A stretch of 64,000 bases of DNA from Malacoraja senta (lineage: Eukaryota): positions 12,402,001 to 12,466,000 of the forward strand of contig CM075989.1 in assembly GCA_038087875.1 (NCBI GenBank), written 5' to 3'. Below are positions 1,799 to 62,974 of the stretch, one piece after another. Below the pieces are notes generated by a model. The model searched no databases. It was not told the origin of the DNA and was given only the letters and a program-made list of their open reading frames with translations. Positions within the stretch are counted from its first letter, which is position 1, and every line of letters starts with the position of its first letter. The position numbers and the translations under genes were made by a program.

Positions 1799-1927
1799 CC
1801 AATCGCTGTCCCTAAGGGGGTTGCGTCCAATCACCGACCAGCTTCCTTTATAATTCCCGTCCAATCAACAAATCGGTCTCCTCCCGTCCAATCAGCCGCT
1901 GTCTCTACGGGCATTGTGTCCAATCAC
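1799..1927 (+). promoter_or_regulatory. Array of five CCAATC boxes at ~30 bp spacing
   Basis: CCAATC at 1799, 1827, 1861, 1888 and 1920 in a CpG-rich patch; function not shown. Confidence 0.4.
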
Positions 1928-8813: not shown

Positions 8814-9071
8814 GTAGTGATTTGCAAATTGTGTACGTGAATTTCCATGATCTGAAAGGCTGTAATGTGGCTCTTGTCTGTATTATGACACAGCATGTTG
8901 TTACTTCAATGCACTATTCTACTGTACCTCTCCAGAACATCTGCTATATATATATTCACTCAAAGTGCTATCTTGAAGTAAATATTAACCAGTTTTATTG
9001 TAAGATTGGAAATATGTGATGGTATGGGTGCTTTGGTAGTGCAAATTGCAGTTTGCTACAAAGCAGCTTTA

Positions 9072-9401
9072 AGGCCCTGTCCCACTTTCCCGAGTTACTC
9101 ATGAGCTCTCCCGAGTTTTCCCCTTGATTCGAACTCGGGGAATTACAGTAATAGCCATTCGTAGGTACTCGGGGCTATTTTTTAAAAGTCGTGGATATTT
9201 TTCAACATGTTGTCAAAACGTCCCGACTTACCTGATGCCCCGAGTTCCTATGGCTGGCATTACGAGCCGCTACGAAACATCTACGGACTCCTACGGCCTC
9301 CTATGAGCTCGCTACCGACATTCCCCGACATTCCCTGAGTTCGCATCGAGGGGAAAACTCGGGAGAGTTCATGAGTAACTTGGGAAAGTGGGACAGGGCC
9401 T
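9072..9401. mobile_element. PIF/Harbinger-type MITE
   Basis: ~70 bp imperfect TIRs starting AGGCCCTGTCCCACTTT; TTA TSD at 9069-9071 and 9402-9404. Confidence 0.85.
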
Positions 9402-9873
9402 TTAGAGTATTTAGATGTATTCTACAGCTTTGAATAAATCCAAGATGTACCTCAAAAACACCTATTATCAGGAACCATTGGCTGGATTTTTGGAATAATG
9501 CAGGGTGATCCAAACAATTGATATCTGCAGCCACTTACTTGGACATTTTACCTGGGGAGGGGGGGGAGATTAAAATTAAGATCTTTACAGTGAAAATAAA
9601 ATCTGAAATTTTGCTTCTTTTATGGAACTAGATCTTTAAGTTCATCTGATGATACTACTGTTGTTGGTTGTATCTACAACAATGAAATAGAGTACAGGCA
9701 CTCCCTGACTTACGTAATAGGAGACTTGCGAAAACCCGCACTCACCAAAGTAATTCTTTATTTCCTTTTTTACCATTGCTTTATTTCCGTAATGCGCTCC
9801 TAACATTATTTGCGGCTGTTTCTGCAAGCCAGTCAGCTGTTCTCGTGCTGTTCTCATCCACTGCACAAAAAAA

Positions 9874-10354
9874 CCAGACTGATTCCTGGGATGTCAGGAC
9901 TTTCATATGAAGAAAGACTGGATAGACTTGGCTTATACTCGCTAGAATTTAGGAGATTGAGAGGGGATCTTATAGAAACGTACAACATTCTTATGGGGTT
10001 GGACAGGCTAGATGCAGGAAGATTGTTCCCGATGTTGGGGAAGTCCAGGACAGGGGGTCACAGCTTAAGGATAAGGGGGAAATCCTTTAAGACCGAGATG
10101 AGGAAAAACTTTTTCACACAGAGAGTGGTGAATCTCTGGAACTCTCTGCCACAGAGGGTAGTTGAGGCCAGTTCATTGGCTATATTTAAGAGGGAGTTAG
10201 ATGTGGCCCTTGTGGCTAAAGGGATCAGGGGGTATGGAGAGAAGGCAGGTACGGGATACTGAGTTGGATGATCAGCCATGATCATATTGAATGGCGGTGC
10301 AGGCTCGAAGGGCCGAATGGCCTACTCCTGCACCTATTTTCTATGTATCTATGT
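9874..10354 (+). mobile_element. CR1/HER1-type LINE 3' fragment
   Basis: LSYEERLDRLGLYSLEFRRLRGDLIETY...RVVNLWNSLP; 3' UTR ggccgaatggcctactcctg and a short tandem tail. Confidence 0.93.
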
Positions 10355-10843
10355 AAAGAGTAAATTCAGGCGTGTGTGGTAGCACTTTTTACAACTTATG
10401 TAACATTTGACTTGCACAAGAGATTTTGAATCTTGTGCCATGGTGCCACAGCGACAATCTAGCCCTTAACATAATGGAGACAAAATAGTTGGTTGTCGAA
10501 CAAAGGAAGTGGGGTGGGTGGGGGGAGGGGGGGTAATGGGAGGGAGTTGGTGGCGTGAACACAATCTATCCTTATCAGTGGAGTTGCTGTTGAGATCGTT
10601 GACAGCTTTGAGTTCTGGAATTATTTTGGTCCATTCGTATTGATGTGGTGATCAAGTAATTCTACTTTTTGAGGACCATGCATGTCCATGGGGATTCTCT
10701 CAAACCTCGACAAATATGTTTATAGAAGGTATTCTGACGGGAAGCATCTCAGCCAGTTATGGCATTTGCTCTGCTCTTGACCTCCTCAACCTATAGCCCA
10801 GTCCATCATAGGCTCATCACATTCTTCTATCCAGTCCATCTTT

Positions 10844-11447
10844 AGTCGGTGTTCGTCACGGTGGACACTGGGAGTTCGATGAGCTGGTGGAGAAGATCTC
10901 CTCCGAGAAGGCCGTGAGCGTGAGTTACTGCAACGGTGGTGGTGGAGGGGATGGACCCAGGGGGACGGGTAGACGGGTCCGCCATTGCCGCTGCGGGCGG
11001 GGGAGAGGGGTGAGTGATGAGGGAGAGAGAGACGGGACCTGGGCCTCCACTGAACCCCCACCACGGCCGCTGCCAGTGGTGGGGGAGATGATATACAAGT
11101 TACTGTGAGAAGGGGAGAGAGGAGTTTGCGAGTGAGGTGGGACAGGCAGCCGCTGGAGGGGCAGGAGGTGGCATTGCCATCCCGGCCATGGCATTGGGAG
11201 AAGAGACCAATCTGCGTGGTGCTGACTGAAGGAATCTGCGCACGTGCGGTTTTTAAGACTTTTTAAATCTCGATACCTTTTACAATATACCACTGATCTG
11301 AACGAAACTTGTTGCACTCGCAGCACAAGAGAATGGTGAGTAACCTGACAGAAAAGTGTGGCGCTAAGGCGTACCGTTTTTGCGCAAATAGAAAAAACCC
11401 GCAAACCGGAAGAACACAAGATTAGACTTTTAGTTATGTATAAAAGA
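10844..11447 (-). mobile_element. Non-autonomous Helitron-like element, 3'-truncated, with ALG13-like cargo
   Basis: 11250-11447 is homologous to 43657-43854 (shared aatatacc, aatggtgagtaa, gtaccgtttttgcgcaa, caagat..ttttagt). Ends in GA|T followed by (AGAT)n, i.e. 5'-TC on the minus strand. No CTAG end was seen. Confidence 0.65.
10846..10919 (+). pseudogene. ALG13-like exon-1 fragment carried in a Helitron-like element
   Basis: Reads SVFVTVDTG(S)-[1-nt deletion]-FDELVEKISSEKAVS, then GTGAGT at 10920. Colinear with the ALG13 N-terminus (VFVTVGTTSFDDL...), with the donor after codon-equivalent 27. No ATG is present. Confidence 0.78.
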
Positions 11448-11571
11448 TAGATAGATAGATGTATTGATGTATAGACTAAAAAACAACAAAGAAGGAAGGG
11501 ACGAGACAGACTGTTGGTGAGGCGGCGATTGCGGGCGCCACCCGGTGGTCTGAGCAACATAACTGGGCATC

Positions 11572-12065
11572 ATATTTTGGGTACCATGTCTGAGGAAGGA
11601 TATGCAAGCCCTAGAGAGGAGGTTTACAAGAATGATCACAGGACTGAGTGGGTTAACATATGATGAGCTTTTGACAGCACTGGGCGTGTACTCACTGGAG
11701 CTTAGAAGAATGAGCGGGGACCTAATTGAAACGTACCGAATAGTGAAAGGCTTGGATAGAGTGGATGTGGAGAGGATGTTTCCACTAGTGGGAGAGTGTA
11801 GGACTAGAGGTCATAACCTCAGAATTAAAGGACGTTCCTTTAGGAAGGAGATGAGGAATCTGTGGAATTCTTTGCCACAGAAGGCTTTGGAGGCCAGGTC
11901 AATGGATATTTTTAAGGCATAGATTGATAGATTCTTGATTAGTATGGGTGTCGGGGGTTATGGGGAGAAGGCAGGTGAATGGGGTTAGGAGGGTGAGATG
12001 GATCAGCCATGATTGATGGAGTAGATCTGATGGGCCAAATGGTGTAATTTTTGCTCCTATCATAT
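11572..12065 (+). mobile_element. CR1/HER1-type LINE 3' fragment
   Basis: ALERRFTRMITG...GDLIETYRIVKGLDRVD. Confidence 0.9.
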
Positions 12066-20574: not shown

Positions 20575-22185
20575 CCTCACTAACTTCCTATACCACTGTA
20601 ACATAATGTCCCAACGGCTATATGATGAAGACCAGCAAGCCAGACGTCTTCTTCACCACCCTGTGCCTGCAATCCCGTTTTCATAGAATAATGTACTTGT
20701 ACTCCTGGATCCCTATGCTCTACAGCAGCCTCCAGCGCTCTACCATTCACTGTGAAGGCACAGCCTCTGGTTGGTCTTCCCAAAATGCAACACCTCACAC
20801 TTATCTGAATTAAATTCCTGTAGCTGAGCCTGGAACTCGGGTGAGTTCATGGCTCTGGTCGGTGGCGGAGATGCGGGGGTAAAGTCCTTTTCTAAAGCGA
20901 TGCTGCCTGACCCGCTGAGTTAAGGGCCTGTCCCACTTGGGCGTCATTTGCGTGTCATTTACGCGACAGGCCGGTAGTGACTGACACACGACAGTCTCGC
21001 GAAAATCGTCTAGCAGTACGACAGTCGCGCGCCAAGTGCTCTTGAGGGCCCTGCTTCTTTTGGGAGCCATTTGCGATGTCGATTGTACTTGGTCCGATCT
21101 CCGTGGCAAGGATTTTCCCAGTGTAAAATTTTGAAAACTTTGCGTGCTTTATACCCGGGTGGTCACGTGGTGCGGCGCTCAAATGACGCACAAATGGCGA
21201 GCCGACGGCGTACGGGCTGCGCATGGTTATGGACGTTGATGCACGGTGACGCATAATAAATTAGCATAGGCAATGTTCATGCATAACCATGCATCACCAC
21301 GCGCTACACGTACTCTGTCAGTACGTCAGCGTGCGCAAGGGATATGTCATGCAGGTGACACGCGAGGATTTTGAGCATTCCAAATTCCTGGGGACCCACG
21401 CGTTGCCGCATGTCACTGCATATGCCACCATGCCTCACCACACGCCATGCACGCGTCATGACACGCCAACCAATTTTTAGGATGTCGCGTAAATGATGCC
21501 CAAGTGGGACAGGCCCTTTACTCCAGCAATTTGTGTCTATCCATTTGCCATTCCTTGGCCCATGTGCCCAGTTGATCAAGATCCTGCTGTAATTCATGCG
21601 GTCTACAATACAACCTATTTTAGTATCATCAGCAAACTCTTTAATATTGTCTAGTGCATTTTCATCCAAATCATTATAGACGACAAACAACAATGGCTCC
21701 AGCAATAATCCTTGAGGCACATCATTAGTCACAGGCCTTTAGTCTGAAAAATTATCTTCCACCTCTACCCTCTGCTTCCTACCATGAAGCCAATTCGAAA
21801 TCCAGTTAGCTAGCTCTCCCTGGAGCCTCCGCGATTTACCCTTCCAGAGCAGCCTACCATGTGGAACATTATCAAACGTCTTGCTAAAGTCCATATCGAC
21901 TATGTCTGCAGCCCTGCTTCATTAACCTTCTTGGTTACTTCTTTAAAAAACTCAATAAAATTTGTGAAACACAATGCCCGTGCTAACTAACCCTAATCAG
22001 ACCTTGCCTTTCCAGATACATGTATATCTTATTCCTCACAATTCACCCCAATATCTTTCCTACCACAGATGTTATGCTTATTGGTTTCAAGTTCCCAGAT
22101 TATTATTTTTTTTGCAGCCCCTCTTGAATAGAGGCACAGCATTAGCCACCCTTCAGACTTCCGGCACCTCACCCGTGACTAACGA
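20575..22185 (-). mobile_element. CR1-type LINE RT region, interrupted by Penelope and MITE insertions
   Basis: VPQGLLLEPLLFVVYNDLDEN...FADDTKIG on the minus strand. Confidence 0.8.
20923..21517. mobile_element. PIF/Harbinger-type MITE inserted in a Penelope-derived fragment
   Basis: ~30 bp TIRs AGGGCCTGTCCCACTTGGGC. TTA TSD; removing the element restores gctgagTTActccagc. Confidence 0.88.
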
Positions 22186-30960: not shown

Positions 30961-31140
30961 CCTGTTCATATCCGATGCATATGACAAATAGTCACCGTTG
31001 ACTCTTATGTGCAAAATATGTAAATATCCTGTAATGATGGAAGTTGTTTTGATAAAACATGAACTTGCATGTGCACTAAAATTTAGCATTATAAGCACTG
31101 AATTTTTAATCAGTTTCTTGTTTTCTTTAGATTTGGGAGA

Positions 31141-31253
31141 ATGGTTTGTGCTGCCTCGCGTTGGTGCCAATGGGCGTTGTTAATTTGTTACCTTGAAAGA
31201 GTGGTATTGTGTCTAAATCCCGATGATCCTAATGTGTGCAGCCACTGGGAAAG
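31141..31253 (+). CDS. MEGF11: MEGF11 first coding exon (signal peptide and start of EMI domain); the exon begins at 31131
   Basis: Acceptor ttttctttAG ends at 31130. ATG at 31141 has a strong Kozak context (AGAATGG). Translates MVCAASRWCQWALLICYLERVVLCLNPDDPNVCSHWE(S), matching the MEGF10/11 motif LNxxDPNVCSHWES. Phase-2 donor AG|gtaaat at 31254. Confidence 0.93.
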
Positions 31254-34633: not shown

Positions 34634-34833
34634 NNNNNNNNNNNNNNNNNNNNNNNNNNNNNNNNNNNNNNNNNNNNNNNNNNNNNNNNNNNNNNNNNNN
34701 NNNNNNNNNNNNNNNNNNNNNNNNNNNNNNNNNNNNNNNNNNNNNNNNNNNNNNNNNNNNNNNNNNNNNNNNNNNNNNNNNNNNNNNNNNNNNNNNNNNN
34801 NNNNNNNNNNNNNNNNNNNNNNNNNNNNNNNNN
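34634..34833. other. Assembly gap (200 N)
   Basis: Run of N. Confidence 1.
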
Positions 34834-35610
34834 GGGGAGAGAGAAGGGGCAGTGGGAGAGAGAAGGGGGAGTGGGAGAGAAGGGGGAGTGGGAGAAAGGC
34901 ATGGGGGTGGAAGGGAGGGGACGGATGGGGAGAAAAGAGATTAGAGGGGAGACGGAGAGATTAGAGGGGAGAGAGGGGGAGGTAGGGGGAGAGAGAGAGG
35001 AGGGGGTGAGTGAGGGGGTGAGAGGATAGGTGAGGGGGAGACTTGGAGGGGAAGAAGAGGAGGGGGAGAGTTGGAGGGTGGAGAGGGAGAGGTGGGGGAG
35101 AGAAGAGGAGGGGGAGAGGTGATGGGGAGGGGGGGAGGGGAGGGTGGAGAGTGGGGGTGGAGAGGGGGAGGAGAATACGATGTAGAGGGGGTGTAGAGGG
35201 GAGGGGATAAAATGGGGGAGGGGAGGGAGAAAGGTGAGGGGGGAGAGGGGGGAGGTGGAGAGAGATTGGATGTGAGAGAGAGAGGGAGAGAGAGGAGGGG
35301 GGAGCGAGAAGGGGGAGAGAGAAGGGGAGGGGGGAAGGCACGGGGAGGGAGGGGAAGACAGAGGGAGAGAGAGGGGAGAGGGGGGAGAGAGGGGAGAGAG
35401 GAGGGGGTGAGTGAGGGGGTTGGAGGAATGGGAGGGGGAGTTGGAGGGGAGAGAAGAGGAGGGGAGAGGAGGAGGGGAGAGGTGGAGGGGGGAGAGGTGG
35501 AGGGAGGTGGAGGGGGAGAACAGGAGGAGAGGAGGAGGGGAGGATAGGAGGGGTAGAGGTGGAGGGGGAGTGGAGGGCGGTAGAGAAGGGAGGGGGTAGA
35601 TAGGGAAGGT
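34834..35610. repeat. Complex G/A-rich purine tract, copy 1
   Basis: Almost entirely G/A on the + strand; shares ordered landmark words with 37040-37900. Confidence 0.9.
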
Positions 35611-36024
35611 GACAAAATAAGCCAGGCGCTTGAGCCAGCATGAGAGAGCCGGCCCGTTTGGGGGGGGGGGGGAAGTGGAGGAGAGCCGGGCAGCAGCTGC
35701 GAAAATCGCCAGCGAAAGAATAAAAATGTCGTGTTTTTGGAGTAGAGCCGGGCGGCAGCAGCCTTTATGGTGACAAAATGAGTGAGTGTGGGGTGGGGTG
35801 GGGGGGGGATGATTTTATTTTAAAACGTGTACATAAAAATGCCTAAATCTAATAAGGAGTGTGTTAGGGTATGTAAAAGTGTAATGTCTAGCGAAATGGA
35901 AAAAAATCTCGGAGTTTTCGCGTGTGGTTTTGGCGGACCAAGGAATCAAAGGCCAAATCTGACACCCACAAACACACACACACACACACTCCCACGCACA
36001 CACACACAGAGTTTTAATAGTATA

Positions 36025-38581
<2,557 letters not shown>

Positions 38582-38587
38582 TAATGA

Positions 38588-38764
<177 letters not shown>

Positions 38765-40552: not shown

Positions 40553-40729
<177 letters not shown>

Positions 40730-42758: not shown

Positions 42759-43854
42759 ATAGACCAAGTCCCATTCCCCCAACGTAATATTCCAGCACTC
42801 ACCCATAGCCCCCAACTGCGCAGGCGCAGCTGAGGGGTTCCCGTTGTGATGCCAGAGATGCCCGTTGTGACGTGAGTCACGGCAACACTCCCCCAACTGC
42901 ACCTCGCCATCACGGCAACTCTCCACCAACTATGCATCGCCATCTCTCTTCCTACCGCTATCCTCCTCCATTCCCCCTCATCCCCAGGACTCACTCCCCT
43001 TCCTCTTCACCCTCCCTCTTTTTTCCCCTGTCTTCCTTCCCTCCCCCACTCCTTCCCACACCTCTCCCTTCCTCTCCTTTCCCCTACCCTCAGTCACTCC
43101 CTCCCTCCCTCCATAACCCCTCTCCCCTCCCTACCCCCTCCTCACCCTCTATCTCCCCCCCTCCCGCACTCTCCCTCCTCACCTCCCCCACTTTCCCCTC
43201 CCTCTCCCTCCCTACCCCCTCCTCTCCCATAATCCCATCAGCTTCCCTCCTCACCTCCTAAGGATCTCGATGTAAACCACCGCCGGCTCCATTTTCTCCA
43301 GCAGGGTGGCGATGAAGTTGTACTTGAGGCGGGGGTTGTCGAGGGAGGTGGCGAGCATCCTGGAGCCAGGGGAGGGCTTGAGGCGGGTGCTGTTGGGGGT
43401 GGTGGGGGAGAAGAGGGGCGAGTGTCTTGGAGCTGGAGGAGGGGAGGGAGAGACCGAGGGCACCCGGCGCAGCCTGTTCCAGCCCCCCGGTCCCCGGGGT
43501 GTGGGGGCAGAAAGTACAATGGAAGGGAACCTGCCCGTGGAGCCGTCGGGTCGCCATTGTGACGGGGGGGAAAAAGGTCTGAAATTGTGCATAGGCCGCG
43601 ATGAGAACCCGTGGGGTGTCCTTTGTGACGCCTGTCAAGTAAAGTGGGGGCACTGTTTTTAAAAAAAAGTTTAAAACGTCAATAACTTGTAAAATATACC
43701 ATCAATCGGAACAAAACTTTTAAAATTTACATCACAGGACAATGGTGAGTAAGGTGGGCCAAAAATTGTAGCGCTATCGTGTACCGTTTTTGCGCAATAC
43801 AAGCCGGGTAAACAAACGGACAATCAAACAAGATGGGAGTTTTAGTAATATAGA
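42759..43854 (-). mobile_element. Non-autonomous Helitron-like element with HTRA2-like cargo
   Basis: Left end tagaccaagtcccattcccccaac matches 36026 onward with the first hairpin deleted. Right end gagttttagtaatataga matches the family terminus and is followed by AGAT-like repeats. Confidence 0.72.
43255..43557 (-). pseudogene. HTRA2-like exon-1 fragment carried in a Helitron-like element
   Basis: 43340-43255 encodes [28 protein letters not shown](R), resembling HTRA2 [28 protein letters not shown], followed by a phase-2 donor AG|GTGAGG. An upstream Kozak ATG at 43557 (MATRRL...) is in another frame, implying a frameshift. No downstream HtrA exons were seen. Confidence 0.82.
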
Positions 43855-46800
43855 GAAAGAAGATAGATTGTGCAATACATTTGATAACTTTCAATGAGGT
43901 CTAAAATATTTTGCTTTATCAATATTTTTGAAATATTCTTGGTGACACTCCTTTCCATTACTTTGAATAATTGTGAATCAGCTGTAATGTTTTTTTTATT
44001 TTAAAGAAGAGTGTTTGCTGTACTGATCCAGAACTTCAATCCATTAATCTACTATAATGAGAAAACCTAATGACAAATTGGAAAATTTAGATGTCAGGAA
44101 AGAAATTGTCTCAGTCATTAAGAGAGGTAGAGAAAAGCTGATAGAATTAAGCCAATTTTAGGATGGTAAAATATAACTGTTGAAAATTACCATTATTAAA
44201 TTATTTGGTGCTAAAATGTATAACCAATGATGATTTGTCCTAGATTTTATCATTCTGAAACAAAATTCCTTTTAATGCAGTCTTTTCTGCAGGGATATTA
44301 ACACTGGAAATGCAGTTGCTTGACTAAACCATACGTGTGTCATAGAGATGCCACTTAATTATGTTTGCAGTTAAAAGAGATTGTTGATCAGAATACTCAA
44401 TACCTGTATTAACCTTTTGATCTCAATCACATCAACATGTTCAATAGCTTCTAGCTTTTCTCTTTGCTTTTCCATTTCATGATGCAACATGTTCGGTCAA
44501 GTGAAGTAAATATTTAAGCAGAGTGTTGGTTTAGCTCAATGTTTGTTTGAGACATATTTTCCTGTTGGCTTAATCCATGCTTTTTTTAAAGTAACAGTAT
44601 CTTATGAGGATTTACTTAGTGGAACTTTTCTGTGTTGCAGAGAATTCTGGGGCAGCTACCAATGCTATTGTTTCTTAATCTGTTCCTATATGGTCAAATG
44701 ATTTTATTGTAATTCAAACAAGAAGCAAAAGTTTCAGTATGAGGAATACTGAGAAGCTTTACATTTTATTCAAAACATCAGCAAGGCAAAATTTGCTCCC
44801 AATCCTGAATTTAGATGGTCTTGTGTTGTGACTAATCCTGCAATACAGAAATTATCCTACTTGTTTCCATTATAGAAAATGAAATGTTAAAATTTCAATG
44901 GTTTAATTTAAAGAATTGGATGAGTTTACCTAATTACCTAAAATGCAAAAACAAATTGCTGGAGAAGCTCAAAGGGTCAAGCAACATTTGTGGAGGCAAA
45001 GGGATAGTTTACATTTTGGGTCATGACTGAAATTGTAGAGAGAAGGTAACCAATATGAATAGGTGAGAGGGAGGGGTGAAATAGAGGTTGGTAGTTGGAA
45101 CCTTGGTGAAGTGGGAATTGTTGGGGGAGGGGCAGTGGGATTTTAGGGACGGAGGCTGATGGTGATAGGTGGAAATTGGTAAGAAGAAATTGCGGAGGGA
45201 TGATAGGCAGAAGGAATCAGATGGGGAAGGGATTAGGAAAGTTACAGTACTTTGAACAATATCTAACAGTATTAATGAAAACTGTAGATACTGGAATGTG
45301 GAGCAAAGAACAAGCAGCTCGAGCAACACTGTTAATAATGCTTTCATGACGTGATTGTTACATTTCTCAAGAACAATAAATTCAGATATATTGTGATTAA
45401 ACAGCTGGTCAGGCAGGGGTTAAAGCAAAATATGCGGTTGATGTTTGGTGACGTTCGTCATTAAAACTGGCTAATTTATTTATTTTGGACCCATATAATT
45501 TATAATTTACACAGTGTAATGGAAAACCCGTTATATAACTATACAGAAAAGAACTTTGGAAGCACTGATAAAGAAATCACACATTGACTGTTTTAGAAGG
45601 TTCATTTAAAGTTTAAAGAGTAGCAACCTAGAAACTATTCCTGTCACTAAAGGCATGTTAACTGCAACACAGGGTGAGCCAGCATTTCTTTTATATGTGG
45701 GCTCCAGAAGCAATACATGAGACCCATGAGGTCACACACACGGATTGGGATATGTTTGTACAAACACACAAAGGGAAGGGCAATATCATGATGCTTTCAT
45801 GCATTCTCTGCCTTAAAAAAAAGACTGTTCTTAATTTTTTTTTTGACTTTGACCAAAGTAGTAACACATATTGACGGGTCTCTTAATAAACTATAAGGTA
45901 TTTTAGGATTAGGATATATGTGAAGACAAAGGGTACAAGAGCAAGCAGTCATATTGTGCACATCTGCAACTGAAATATTGCATCCAATGCTGGGGACCAT
46001 ACCTTAGGAAGGATGTGAAGATCCTAGAAAGGTGGATAAAATATTTGCCACCTTGGTTCCAGGAAAGCTATGTGGTTGGTGAAGGTAGGGAGAGAATGAG
46101 TAATGCAGAGATCAACAAGACTTCAGAGAAGATGGAATCACTGAAGGGAACACCTAAAGAAATAGATATCAGGATGAAGACGGGTTCTTTAGGTTCCCTG
46201 GTAGCAATCCAGATGAAGTCATGCCTCTTCAAAATAATGTTGTGAGAGGCTTCAAACCTCCTGTAAAGATCATATTCAGTCTGTGGTGCCTGAGGCTTAT
46301 CAGTGCAGTGTAACACCACTGTGAAACCCTCATGGTCTCCATACACGTACAATATTCCAGGATAGGTACGCAATCATGTTTCGCTGTCACACTTTGAATG
46401 AAATCTGTTTCTTTTATCCAACCGATTTATATTAAAAATGTTGTGCTGCATGATAGAATTTTGTTGAAAAGTGGTGATGAAATAACTAGTTCAATTTCAG
46501 CTGGCATAGATGCTGTTGTGCCATAAGTTTATATGTCCCTATGACATGTAAATCTATGGTATTCAAGCATTTATATCTGTATAGCCCACTGGTAGGAGTA
46601 AAATGTTGTGTAATTTTTTCATGTCAGATACTTCAAGCTTCTGCACCAACAAAGTGATTACTTGAAGAATGAAAGGAGAAAGAGAATTCAGAAACACTTG
46701 AATATTTTAACATGACATTTCCGCTCTATAACTGTCTATAATACATTTGACCCTAATTGAAACAGAAAAGCTAAAGATTTATCAGTCACAGTTATTGTAC

Positions 46801-60295: not shown

Positions 60296-61912
60296 GTAAA
60301 AGAATCAAGCCCACAAAAATAGGTAACACATACCTCATGCTCTGGGATTGTTCCTTCCTTGCTCATTTTATTCCTTAAAAGGTCATGCACCCATTTAATC
60401 TAGCACTATCAATTTCCACAGAAAGTTCATTTTGATGGGAAAAAGCTCTGACTTTAACAGCACTTTGAAAAGTTCCTGGTTTACTGAAATTCTGCAGACA
60501 GTTAGATTGTGGAGAAAAGAAGATACCATAAATTGTGTCCTTGGGTTAATCGTGTTGTGATTGGAAAAGACTTTTCCTTTAGGCTTTGCAATGTTGCATT
60601 TAGTTTTTATAAAGTTGCTTCCAACAAAGGCCGCATGGTCTCATAGCATGTTTGGTGGAATTTTAATTTATTTTTTATCATTGTCAGTCAATCAGGAGTT
60701 AAATACTCTCTCTTCCTGAATTTCTTCCTGAAGGAGCAGCTGACGCAATCACAGAAATGTGGTGTTTTTAAGACAATCTCAAAATAGTTTCTGAAGAGTA
60801 TGAAAGATAGATTGAGTCAATGTCGTTTTACTTTAAATTAAACAATGTTATTTATTTTAAAATAATTATTTAAAATATTTTTGAATAATTGAAAGTGCAC
60901 TCTGCTCACTCACCCCTGCTAGTAATGTCACAAGCATCATTATACTTTATCATAATTCACCATACATAGTAGTGGCGTTCTGAAGCATTATTTATGCTGA
61001 CAATATAAATCTAGTTTATTTTTCAAATTTCTTGCAATGTAGCTCAAATTTAAGAAAGCTTTTTTTTTAAAATTAGAAATTAGAGAAACCACTGCATTCT
61101 TTAAATTACTTTGATTTTGTCTAAAATAACCTTGGGAATTGCTGAATCTCCTCCCTTTGCAACTGACCACCAGATCTCTTATTGCCGTGATAGTCTGCTC
61201 TTGATTAATCAATGAATCTACAAATCCACAGGCAATATCTTAATCAGTATTCCCGGACTGTCTGACATTGGAGACCAGTTGTGATACTTGTCCTGTGTAA
61301 CCATCTACTTTGACTGTGTGAACTGAATGTTTTCTTTATTATGACGGCCAAAGATCTTTCTAACAATGAAATCATTTAAAAAGTGATTGTGTCGAGTGAT
61401 ACTATTGTCAGAAGGCTAATCTGCTTGAGAGCCTGGCTTTGCTCTGCACTCTTGAAGGTTAATTGATTATTACCATGATTTAAACTTGCATGGAAATGCT
61501 ATAAACAAAATAGCACATTTAATTCTTGGGAACTGATTAGCAGCTACTTCTCAGAAAAAAAATGTAAGTACTAGCTGAAGCACCCTTTTCTATGAATGGT
61601 GTACTGTGCTGGCTGAGACACAAAAACATTTCAGATTGGCTTGGAAGCTGAGGAACAGAATACACTTGTCTGTGGTGCAGGATTCTTGTTGGAGTGGGTG
61701 CAGGTCCCTTTCTAGCCACAAATGTCCCTACCTTGTTTTGATAAAGGTGTGGCTGGTGAAGGTGGCTTTCCGTTTTAATGAAGATGCTGTTTCAGAAATG
61801 TAGAAAAATTGTACCAACATCTTTGCGGAGATCCTGGTAGGAGAATTATTCCAGGAGACTGCAAACTTAAGAGAATACTTTCAGTACAACTTTAAACTTA
61901 AACTAAGTATAA

Positions 61913-62623
61913 AGGGCCTGTCCCACTTACGTGTCCTGGGCACGCAAATTACGCGACCTCGTGGTCGCGTTGAGGCGCACGGGCATCGTATGGCTGCGCG
62001 GGGCCGGTCCCACTGAGAAGCGCAGAGAGGTATGTAGTTGTGCGCGACAGCGCGCGGGGCTCCGAAATTTTTGTAGCGAACGAAATCTTCGCGTGCCAAC
62101 GGCCTGTCGCGGAACTGACGGCCAAGACCCAAGACCACTGACGGCCAAGGCCCAAGACCCTGGTACGACGCAACGTCTCACCTCTAACAGCAGCAGAAGC
62201 AGGCAAACGATCGCCGAACTCGGCCTGGGGTTCACGGCCGTTGCGGTCCGGATCCGCCCCCCACTTCTACTCCCAGAGCGGGGCCAAGAAAATTGAAGAT
62301 AGACACAAAATGCTGGAGTAACTCAGCGGGACCGGCAGCATCTCTGGAGAGAAGGAATGGATGATGTTCCGGGTCAAGACCCTTCTTTCAGACTGAAGAA
62401 GGGTCTCGACCCGAAACATCACCCATTGCTTCTCTCCAGAGATGCTGCCGGTCCCGCTGAGTTACTCCGGCATTTTGCGTCCACCTTCAAATGACGTCAC
62501 GCGCTCCAGACGGCTGTGCGCACGCATGAAATCGCGTGCGACCTTCGCGGGACCGTCGCGGCTCAACGCGACCACGAGGTCGCGTAATTTGCATGCTAAG
62601 GACACGTAAGTGGGACAGGCCCT
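61913..62623. mobile_element. PIF/Harbinger-type MITE containing a Penelope-derived palindrome
   Basis: ~62 bp TIRs AGGGCCTGTCCCACTTACGTGTCC...; TAA TSD at 61910-61912 and 62624-62626. Confidence 0.88.
62293..62490. mobile_element. Near-perfect ~200 bp Penelope pLTR-derived palindrome
   Basis: Arms are reverse complements around the centre at 62392; a hammerhead-like core lies on each strand. Confidence 0.85.
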
Positions 62624-62974
62624 TAACTTAAGAGTGTGGTGCTTGAGTTGACAGTGTTGGTCTCAATTTGGTGATTGAAGTCTTGGTGTGCCTGCTCTGC
62701 ACATTTCTAGTGGATGTATCTATTTTGGTGGTTGCAGTGGCTCTTAATAAATTGTCTGTGTTTTCATTGCAGATCTATGCAGACTCAAGTCAATGCCCAC
62801 ATTATCTAAGCAGTGGTGCAAATTTATGGCCTTATTTTTCTGAATTTATTTAAAGCTGAATTTACAAATGCCAACTGCAGTGGTTGGATTTTCATGGATT
62901 ATGATTAGCCAACAGAAAGAGAAATTTAGTAATTCAGCAGAGGGCAAAAGATTCCAGCATGATGTGAAATCATG

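Follow-up and report, generated by a model that had tools for sequence, protein, structure and literature searches.

The window (the whole stretch of DNA that was analysed, 64,000 nt from Malacoraja senta) contains the first coding exon of MEGF11 and two exons of its EMI domain (Table 1). The first coding exon begins with an acceptor, which indicates that a further MEGF11 exon lies upstream. A remnant resembling exon 1 of ALG13 is found upstream of the exon that carries the MEGF11 ATG. A sequence-only reading had placed it there in sense orientation, and this arrangement holds, as MEGF11 was confirmed and lies on the same strand. No report on the MEGF11 5' UTR was found in the literature searched. 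Several unrelated features were also seen in the window. At 1799-1925 (+) there are five CCAATC boxes spaced 28, 34, 27, and 32 nt apart in a mildly CpG-rich, promoter-like stretch, with donor-like sites beside them at 1944 and 1960. Three short MITE-like elements (~9071-9402, 20920-21520, and 61909-62626, the last containing a nested repeat) have long terminal inverted repeats starting GGGCCTGTCCCACT and TTAA-like flanks, and our guess is that they are Kolobok-type.

Table 1. Coordinates of the features discussed, numbered from the first letter of the window.
Feature	Position	Strand	Remarks
Fragment of a separate high-copy repeat	10660..10842	+	Cut at 10842; depth rises from 10723
ALG13 exon-1 remnant	10844..10919	+	Final 2 bases of codon 2, then codons 3-27; without ATG
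Splice donor GTGAGT	10920..10925	+	Conserved ALG13 intron-1 position; -1 base (10919) C here, G in the family
GC-rich segment (62%)	10920..11261	+	High-copy together with the exon
Helitron-like 5' terminal region	11262..11459	-	11262-11456 is 71% identical to 43670-43868 (203 nt; E=4e-18, z=35)
MEGF11 first coding exon	31131..31253	+	Acceptor 31130, ATG 31141
MEGF11 next coding exon, EMI domain	38656..38757	+	
MEGF11 following coding exon, EMI domain	40621..40721	+	
Sister element	42760..43867	-	Same 5' terminus, TC start preceded by A, CTTGGTCTA end followed by T; HTRA2-like exon 1 and purine-rich intron

A deletion of one nucleotide at 10874/10875 splits the remnant into two frames, 10846-10872 and 10875-10919, and GTGAGT follows directly behind the second, just as had been described from the sequence. 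The deletion is present in a contig of public run X1 that has 0 differences over 10345-10898. Only the last AG remains of ALG13 codons 1-2, and the conserved G-T-T motif carries substitutions. For comparison, 120 ALG13 proteins were collected, starting from one metagenome locus, and 110 were kept after 10 without the anchor motif were dropped. The remnant (25 positions, with X at the break) shares 9-16 identities with each of them, and the best match is gar ALG13 (P0193), with 16 of 24 positions identical across the deletion. With a frameshift-tolerant profile, the site at 10846 reaches 37.4 bits, compared to 6.5 for the next-best site in the window and 8.7±2.6 (maximum 19.3) in 60 local shuffles. 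The corresponding Gumbel p is ~4e-7 per window, uncorrected for the gene having been chosen freely beforehand. The proposed ALG13 identity is thus borne out.

Further support comes from the exon boundary. The GT of the remnant lies 71 nt past the V codon, which is 72 minus the deleted base. ALG13-type metagenome loci were gathered by motif (one of them, L081, matches PF04101 with E=1.6e-27); in 32 of 118 the ALG13 frame breaks off ahead of the Q-x-G motif, and 26 of these 32 have a GT at the boundary found in the window. The end of exon 1 after codon 27 in phase 0, which had been proposed for ALG13, therefore stands, and the agreement in intron position supports the identity independently of the protein profile. 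The ALG13 likeness and the conserved exon boundary are real. With exon 1 of ALG13 (a UDP-GlcNAc transferase subunit, PF04101) the remnant shares the N-terminal motif, the length to codon 27, and the phase-0 donor position; unlike the ALG13 gene, it has no ATG, is frameshifted, and is joined to no further exons, and it is not a gene.

The repeat family that carries the exon

Four public runs were compared with 10345-11600 at 80% likeness, with contig counts taken up to 128. X1, X3, and X5 are three large runs from organisms A, B, and D, and X1 may be the assembly's own sample. In all three the exon, the GC-rich middle, and the ~200-nt terminus are high-copy, and together they form one repeat spanning 10844-11459; the feature therefore does not end at 11230 as had been proposed, and its nature as cargo of a high-copy repeat had been overlooked. 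The repeat is carried by ~80 diverged contigs per run, and the copies are ~85% alike (~15% divergence). Paralogous contigs of that likeness tile the path from exon to terminus: in X5, records 24 (10875-11123), 25 (11028-11321), and 28 (11172-11406), and in X3, record 20 (11260-11442). The whole element is spanned by no single contig of the public runs. Behind 11442 the contigs run out in loose ends (61, 88, and 95 in X1, X3, and X5), passing first through a GATA tail and then into diverse flanks with an agreement of 0.42-0.44, as is found for an interspersed multicopy repeat. The summed X1 depth at 10891-10932 is 23,723 versus 32 for the contig of the locus itself, a rough sign of abundance rather than a copy number. 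Run X24, of unspecified kind, has no match on 10555-11478, and this has no bearing on expression. Beside the element, 11479-11549 is the end of another high-copy repeat whose left side is cut and behind which diverse AT-rich flanks follow.

Comparison with the family revealed how far the window copy has decayed. At 10919 a G is found in 83, 87, and 78 contigs of X1, X3, and X5 (97-98% of depth), in contrast to the C of the window copy. A T is inserted behind 10874 in 13, 17, and 19 contigs (42-61% of depth), which indicates that many copies of the family are in frame. The GC-rich segment behind the exon is presumably the start of ALG13 intron 1. It has a CpG observed/expected ratio of 0.69; within it, at ~10985, an ATG in good context was noted on the minus strand. 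Of the differences listed for the element (34), 15 are of the T>C or A>G type, and in 10 of these 15 a CpG has become TpG or CpA in the window copy (background 0.31, p=0.004), a count that rests on the 40 listed of 279 difference rows. The excess indicates that the CpG richness is inherited and decaying. The CpG-rich patch reported earlier is thus present, but its decay points to germline methylation rather than to a live CpG island. The insertion itself is old: record 21 of X5 (10563-10900, 14 differences, 27 gap positions), which has a single-copy depth of 4.6, bridges the left junction in organism D, and therefore both insertion and junction predate the split of organisms A and D.

Termini, relatives, and cargo

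On the minus strand, the element starts with TC preceded by A (11460/11459) and followed by TCTA repeats, although the exact start is blurred by this microsatellite. The sister element has the same start at 43868/43867 (-), so that it is found in 2/2 close copies. The window copy has CTAA followed by A at its left end (minus strand), and the 3' end motif of the family is absent near 10844; the sister ends in CTA followed by T, with the G missing, and a more distant relative at 36025 ends in CTAG followed by T. The end of this relative, CTTGGTCTAG, lies at a head-to-tail junction and is shared with the sister (5/1000 shuffles were as good). Neither terminal inverted repeats nor flanking duplications were found in the window copy or the sister, nor were subterminal inverted repeats found.

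Helitrons are described as having TC and CTAG ends, an AT target, and a hairpin 11 nt before the end (PMC4778049). TC starts preceded by A, CTAG-type ends in the two relatives, and the lack of inverted repeats and duplications all fit these hallmarks. A terminator hairpin was not found when three ends were folded: the left end of the window copy gave z +0.9/+1.2, the sister had none, and the 36025 relative has an imperfect palindrome of 17 nt that stops 12 nt short of its end and was not significant (z -0.14). For this reason the element is named Helitron-like, and membership of the Helitrons is likely but not established. Likeness to the units at 36-38 kb is weak (z 0.1 and 4.5). These more distant Helitron-like units form a head-to-tail tandem at 34834-38400 (-) with a junction at 36024/36025, a CTAG end, and the imperfect palindrome; they are swollen by purine/pyrimidine minisatellites and adjoin a 200-N gap at 34634.

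The sister differs in its cargo. It holds an HTRA2-like first exon (PDB E=4.5e-4; the top 13 of 24 rows are HTRA2), whose ATG lies at 43557 and whose donor lies at 43254. The open frame reaches the NFIA..EK..PAVVYIEIL region, and its boundary is presumably that of HTRA2 exon 1. HTRA2 is sense to the element, and ALG13 antisense. Between 10930-11110 and 43330-43530 there is a weak, parameter-dependent likeness (0 to 57 of 300 shuffles were as good), reflecting either composition or serial capture. Two first exons with their donors behind one type of terminus are what read-through capture is expected to produce.

The left edge of the window copy adjoins the fragment at 10660-10842, which we take to be LINE-like and for which Pfam gave no match. 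Behind 10842, loose ends in 66, 62, and 68 contigs of the three runs run on into a common but different sequence, and this neighbouring repeat does not resume on the right side of the element. Among the joints listed (15 of 131), none skips the element, so that no empty site is seen there; the left flank appears to have been deleted. Neither a native ALG13 locus nor a RepHel gene was seen in the sequences examined.

Origin of the window copy and alternative readings

Taken together, these observations make it probable that the decayed ALG13 exon 1 travels, with its donor, inside a repeat of high copy number. This repeat is likely a non-autonomous Helitron that took up the 5' end of ALG13 and spread through the genome, and the copy that it left ahead of the MEGF11 start codon is truncated and probably inert. 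Rolling-circle transposition that read through the terminator would have brought about the capture, and an autonomous RepHel partner would have driven amplification in trans. At 10842-10844 a subsequent deletion may have taken away the ALG13 ATG, the sequence upstream of it, the 3' end of the element, and the rest of the neighbouring repeat.

Other readings of the same sequence differ in how much they explain. That the remnant is an isolated ALG13 pseudogene, whether duplicated or processed, or that the likeness is due to chance, would agree with the single-frame searches, as PF04101 had no match in a Pfam search of the window and the best tblastn hit for ALG13 (E=0.059) did not rise above chance matches elsewhere in it. 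Motif scans of viral contigs gave 0 matches in one and 75 chance matches in others, and searches for paralogous ORFs with the read-through frame gave none in one case and two 27-28% matches in another, of which the one inspected was a repetitive protein. The frameshift-aware p and the donor at the conserved position speak against this reading, ALG13 exon 2 was found neither behind the remnant nor elsewhere in the window, and the diverged contigs in each run largely refute it, leaving it very improbable. It is unlikely, though less remote, that the carrier is a non-autonomous mobile element of a different kind, either Helentron/HINE-like or an unclassified DNA element, rather than a canonical Helitron. 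Such a carrier would account for the hairpin seen at 0 of 3 folded ends and for a left flank that ends in T, not A, and the microsatellites near the terminus are reminiscent of DINE-1-like elements. The shared TC starts, the CTAG or CTA ends before T in two relatives together with the head-to-tail junction, and the absence of subterminal inverted repeats argue for a Helitron instead. A variant that overlaps with the favoured explanation takes the left edge, 10842-10845, for a true 3' terminus that arose de novo (CTAA, minus strand) in a subfamily that captured ALG13, in which case the family never had the ALG13 ATG or promoter. Here X5 record 22 begins (10843/10844), X3 record 13 stops (10845), and X5 record 23 departs from the window sequence (10844); the CTAA tetrad fits CTRR, and such ends are documented (PMC4778049). 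Copies continuing into the ALG13 ATG, however, would likewise begin to match at 10844, and the tetrad is followed by A, not T. Because the neighbouring repeat breaks off at this very position, and there is neither a hairpin nor an AT target, a deletion is preferred and the de novo terminus is considered possible but doubtful. Under either reading of the left edge, the window copy is without a captured promoter or start codon.

It had further been suggested that the ALG13 piece was exonised, which would make 10846-10919 a putative 74-nt alternative 5' UTR exon of MEGF11 spliced to 31131. The piece is on the same strand as MEGF11, the insertion is shared with organism D, and donors of the bat element HelibatN3 are known to splice into host genes (PMC4778049; PMC4224331). 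The tttAG ending at 10845 is present as had been noted, but its pyrimidine tract is supplied by the 10660-10842 repeat, and the apparent acceptor arises incidentally where the element meets this unrelated sequence. Likewise, the donor described as intact is so at +1 to +6, but its -1 G has been replaced by C. Scored with an approximate matrix, the donor reaches 5.3 bits compared to 10.1 with the family G, the acceptor reaches 6.1 bits compared to 8.4 for the real MEGF11 acceptor, and 90 of the 1652 GT sites in 1-31130 score at least as high as the 10920 donor. The same region holds 65 AG-GT pairs (45 distinct donors) at least as good as the 10845/10920 pair; the donors at 11010 and 11336 are stronger, and the AG at 10834 is a competitor. 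The two sites are thus not above background, and the donor -1 position is not conserved relative to the family. With a promoter and ATG absent and CpG decay pointing to germline methylation, exonisation is quite improbable. Were the piece spliced, it would contribute an upstream ORF of 12 codons (ATG 10879) that stops 12 nt ahead of the MEGF11 ATG, and translation would probably be reduced. The remnant is best regarded, at this locus, as a probably inert, dead relic rather than a new MEGF11 exon.

Precedents and meaning

The closest precedent is HelibatN3 of vesper bats, which captured NUBPL (PMC4224331; PMC4778049). HelibatN3 functions as an exon trap and retains both a promoter and a start codon. 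Both are missing from the window copy, which also carries a frameshift and a donor that is weakened; the cargo (ALG13) and the non-mammalian host differ as well. In bats, Helitrons were found to carry pieces of 54 genes with a bias to promoters, first exons, and first introns, and NUBPL is present at about a thousand copies (PMC4224331). Captured donors are reported to splice into host genes (PMC4778049), and the bias of capture to gene 5' ends recurs across studies (PMC4224331; PMC4778049; PMC12001565). Among non-mammalian vertebrates, Heli1Xen1 of Xenopus laevis carries captured coding fragments, 17/19 of them from 5' ends, but it is a young family with <=17 copies per fragment (PMC12001565), unlike the diverged family described here, which is spread over three organisms. 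ALG13 and HTRA2 are absent from the four supplementary files of PMC4224331 that were examined, and nothing on gene capture in cartilaginous fish was found in PMC6817897. In the openly readable papers searched, neither ALG13 nor HTRA2 was described as captured cargo, nor was any such capture described for a cartilaginous fish.

The family is of more interest than the locus. Large-scale capture of gene 5' ends, known beforehand in bats and at low copy in Xenopus, is revealed here for a non-mammalian vertebrate, in which a Helitron-like family holds two different cargo genes within 64 kb. In practical terms, its copies can mislead the annotation of ALG13 and HTRA2 and the mapping of reads to them. 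As a tentative extension, for which we would claim no more than a minority chance, an undescribed Helitron superfamily in this lineage may have scattered hundreds of cassettes consisting of a housekeeping first exon and its donor (ALG13, HTRA2, and likely more). Intact copies bearing promoters would then act as mobile exon traps or alternative promoters, as in vesper bats. If true, this would constitute an independent vertebrate system for transposon-driven transcript innovation.
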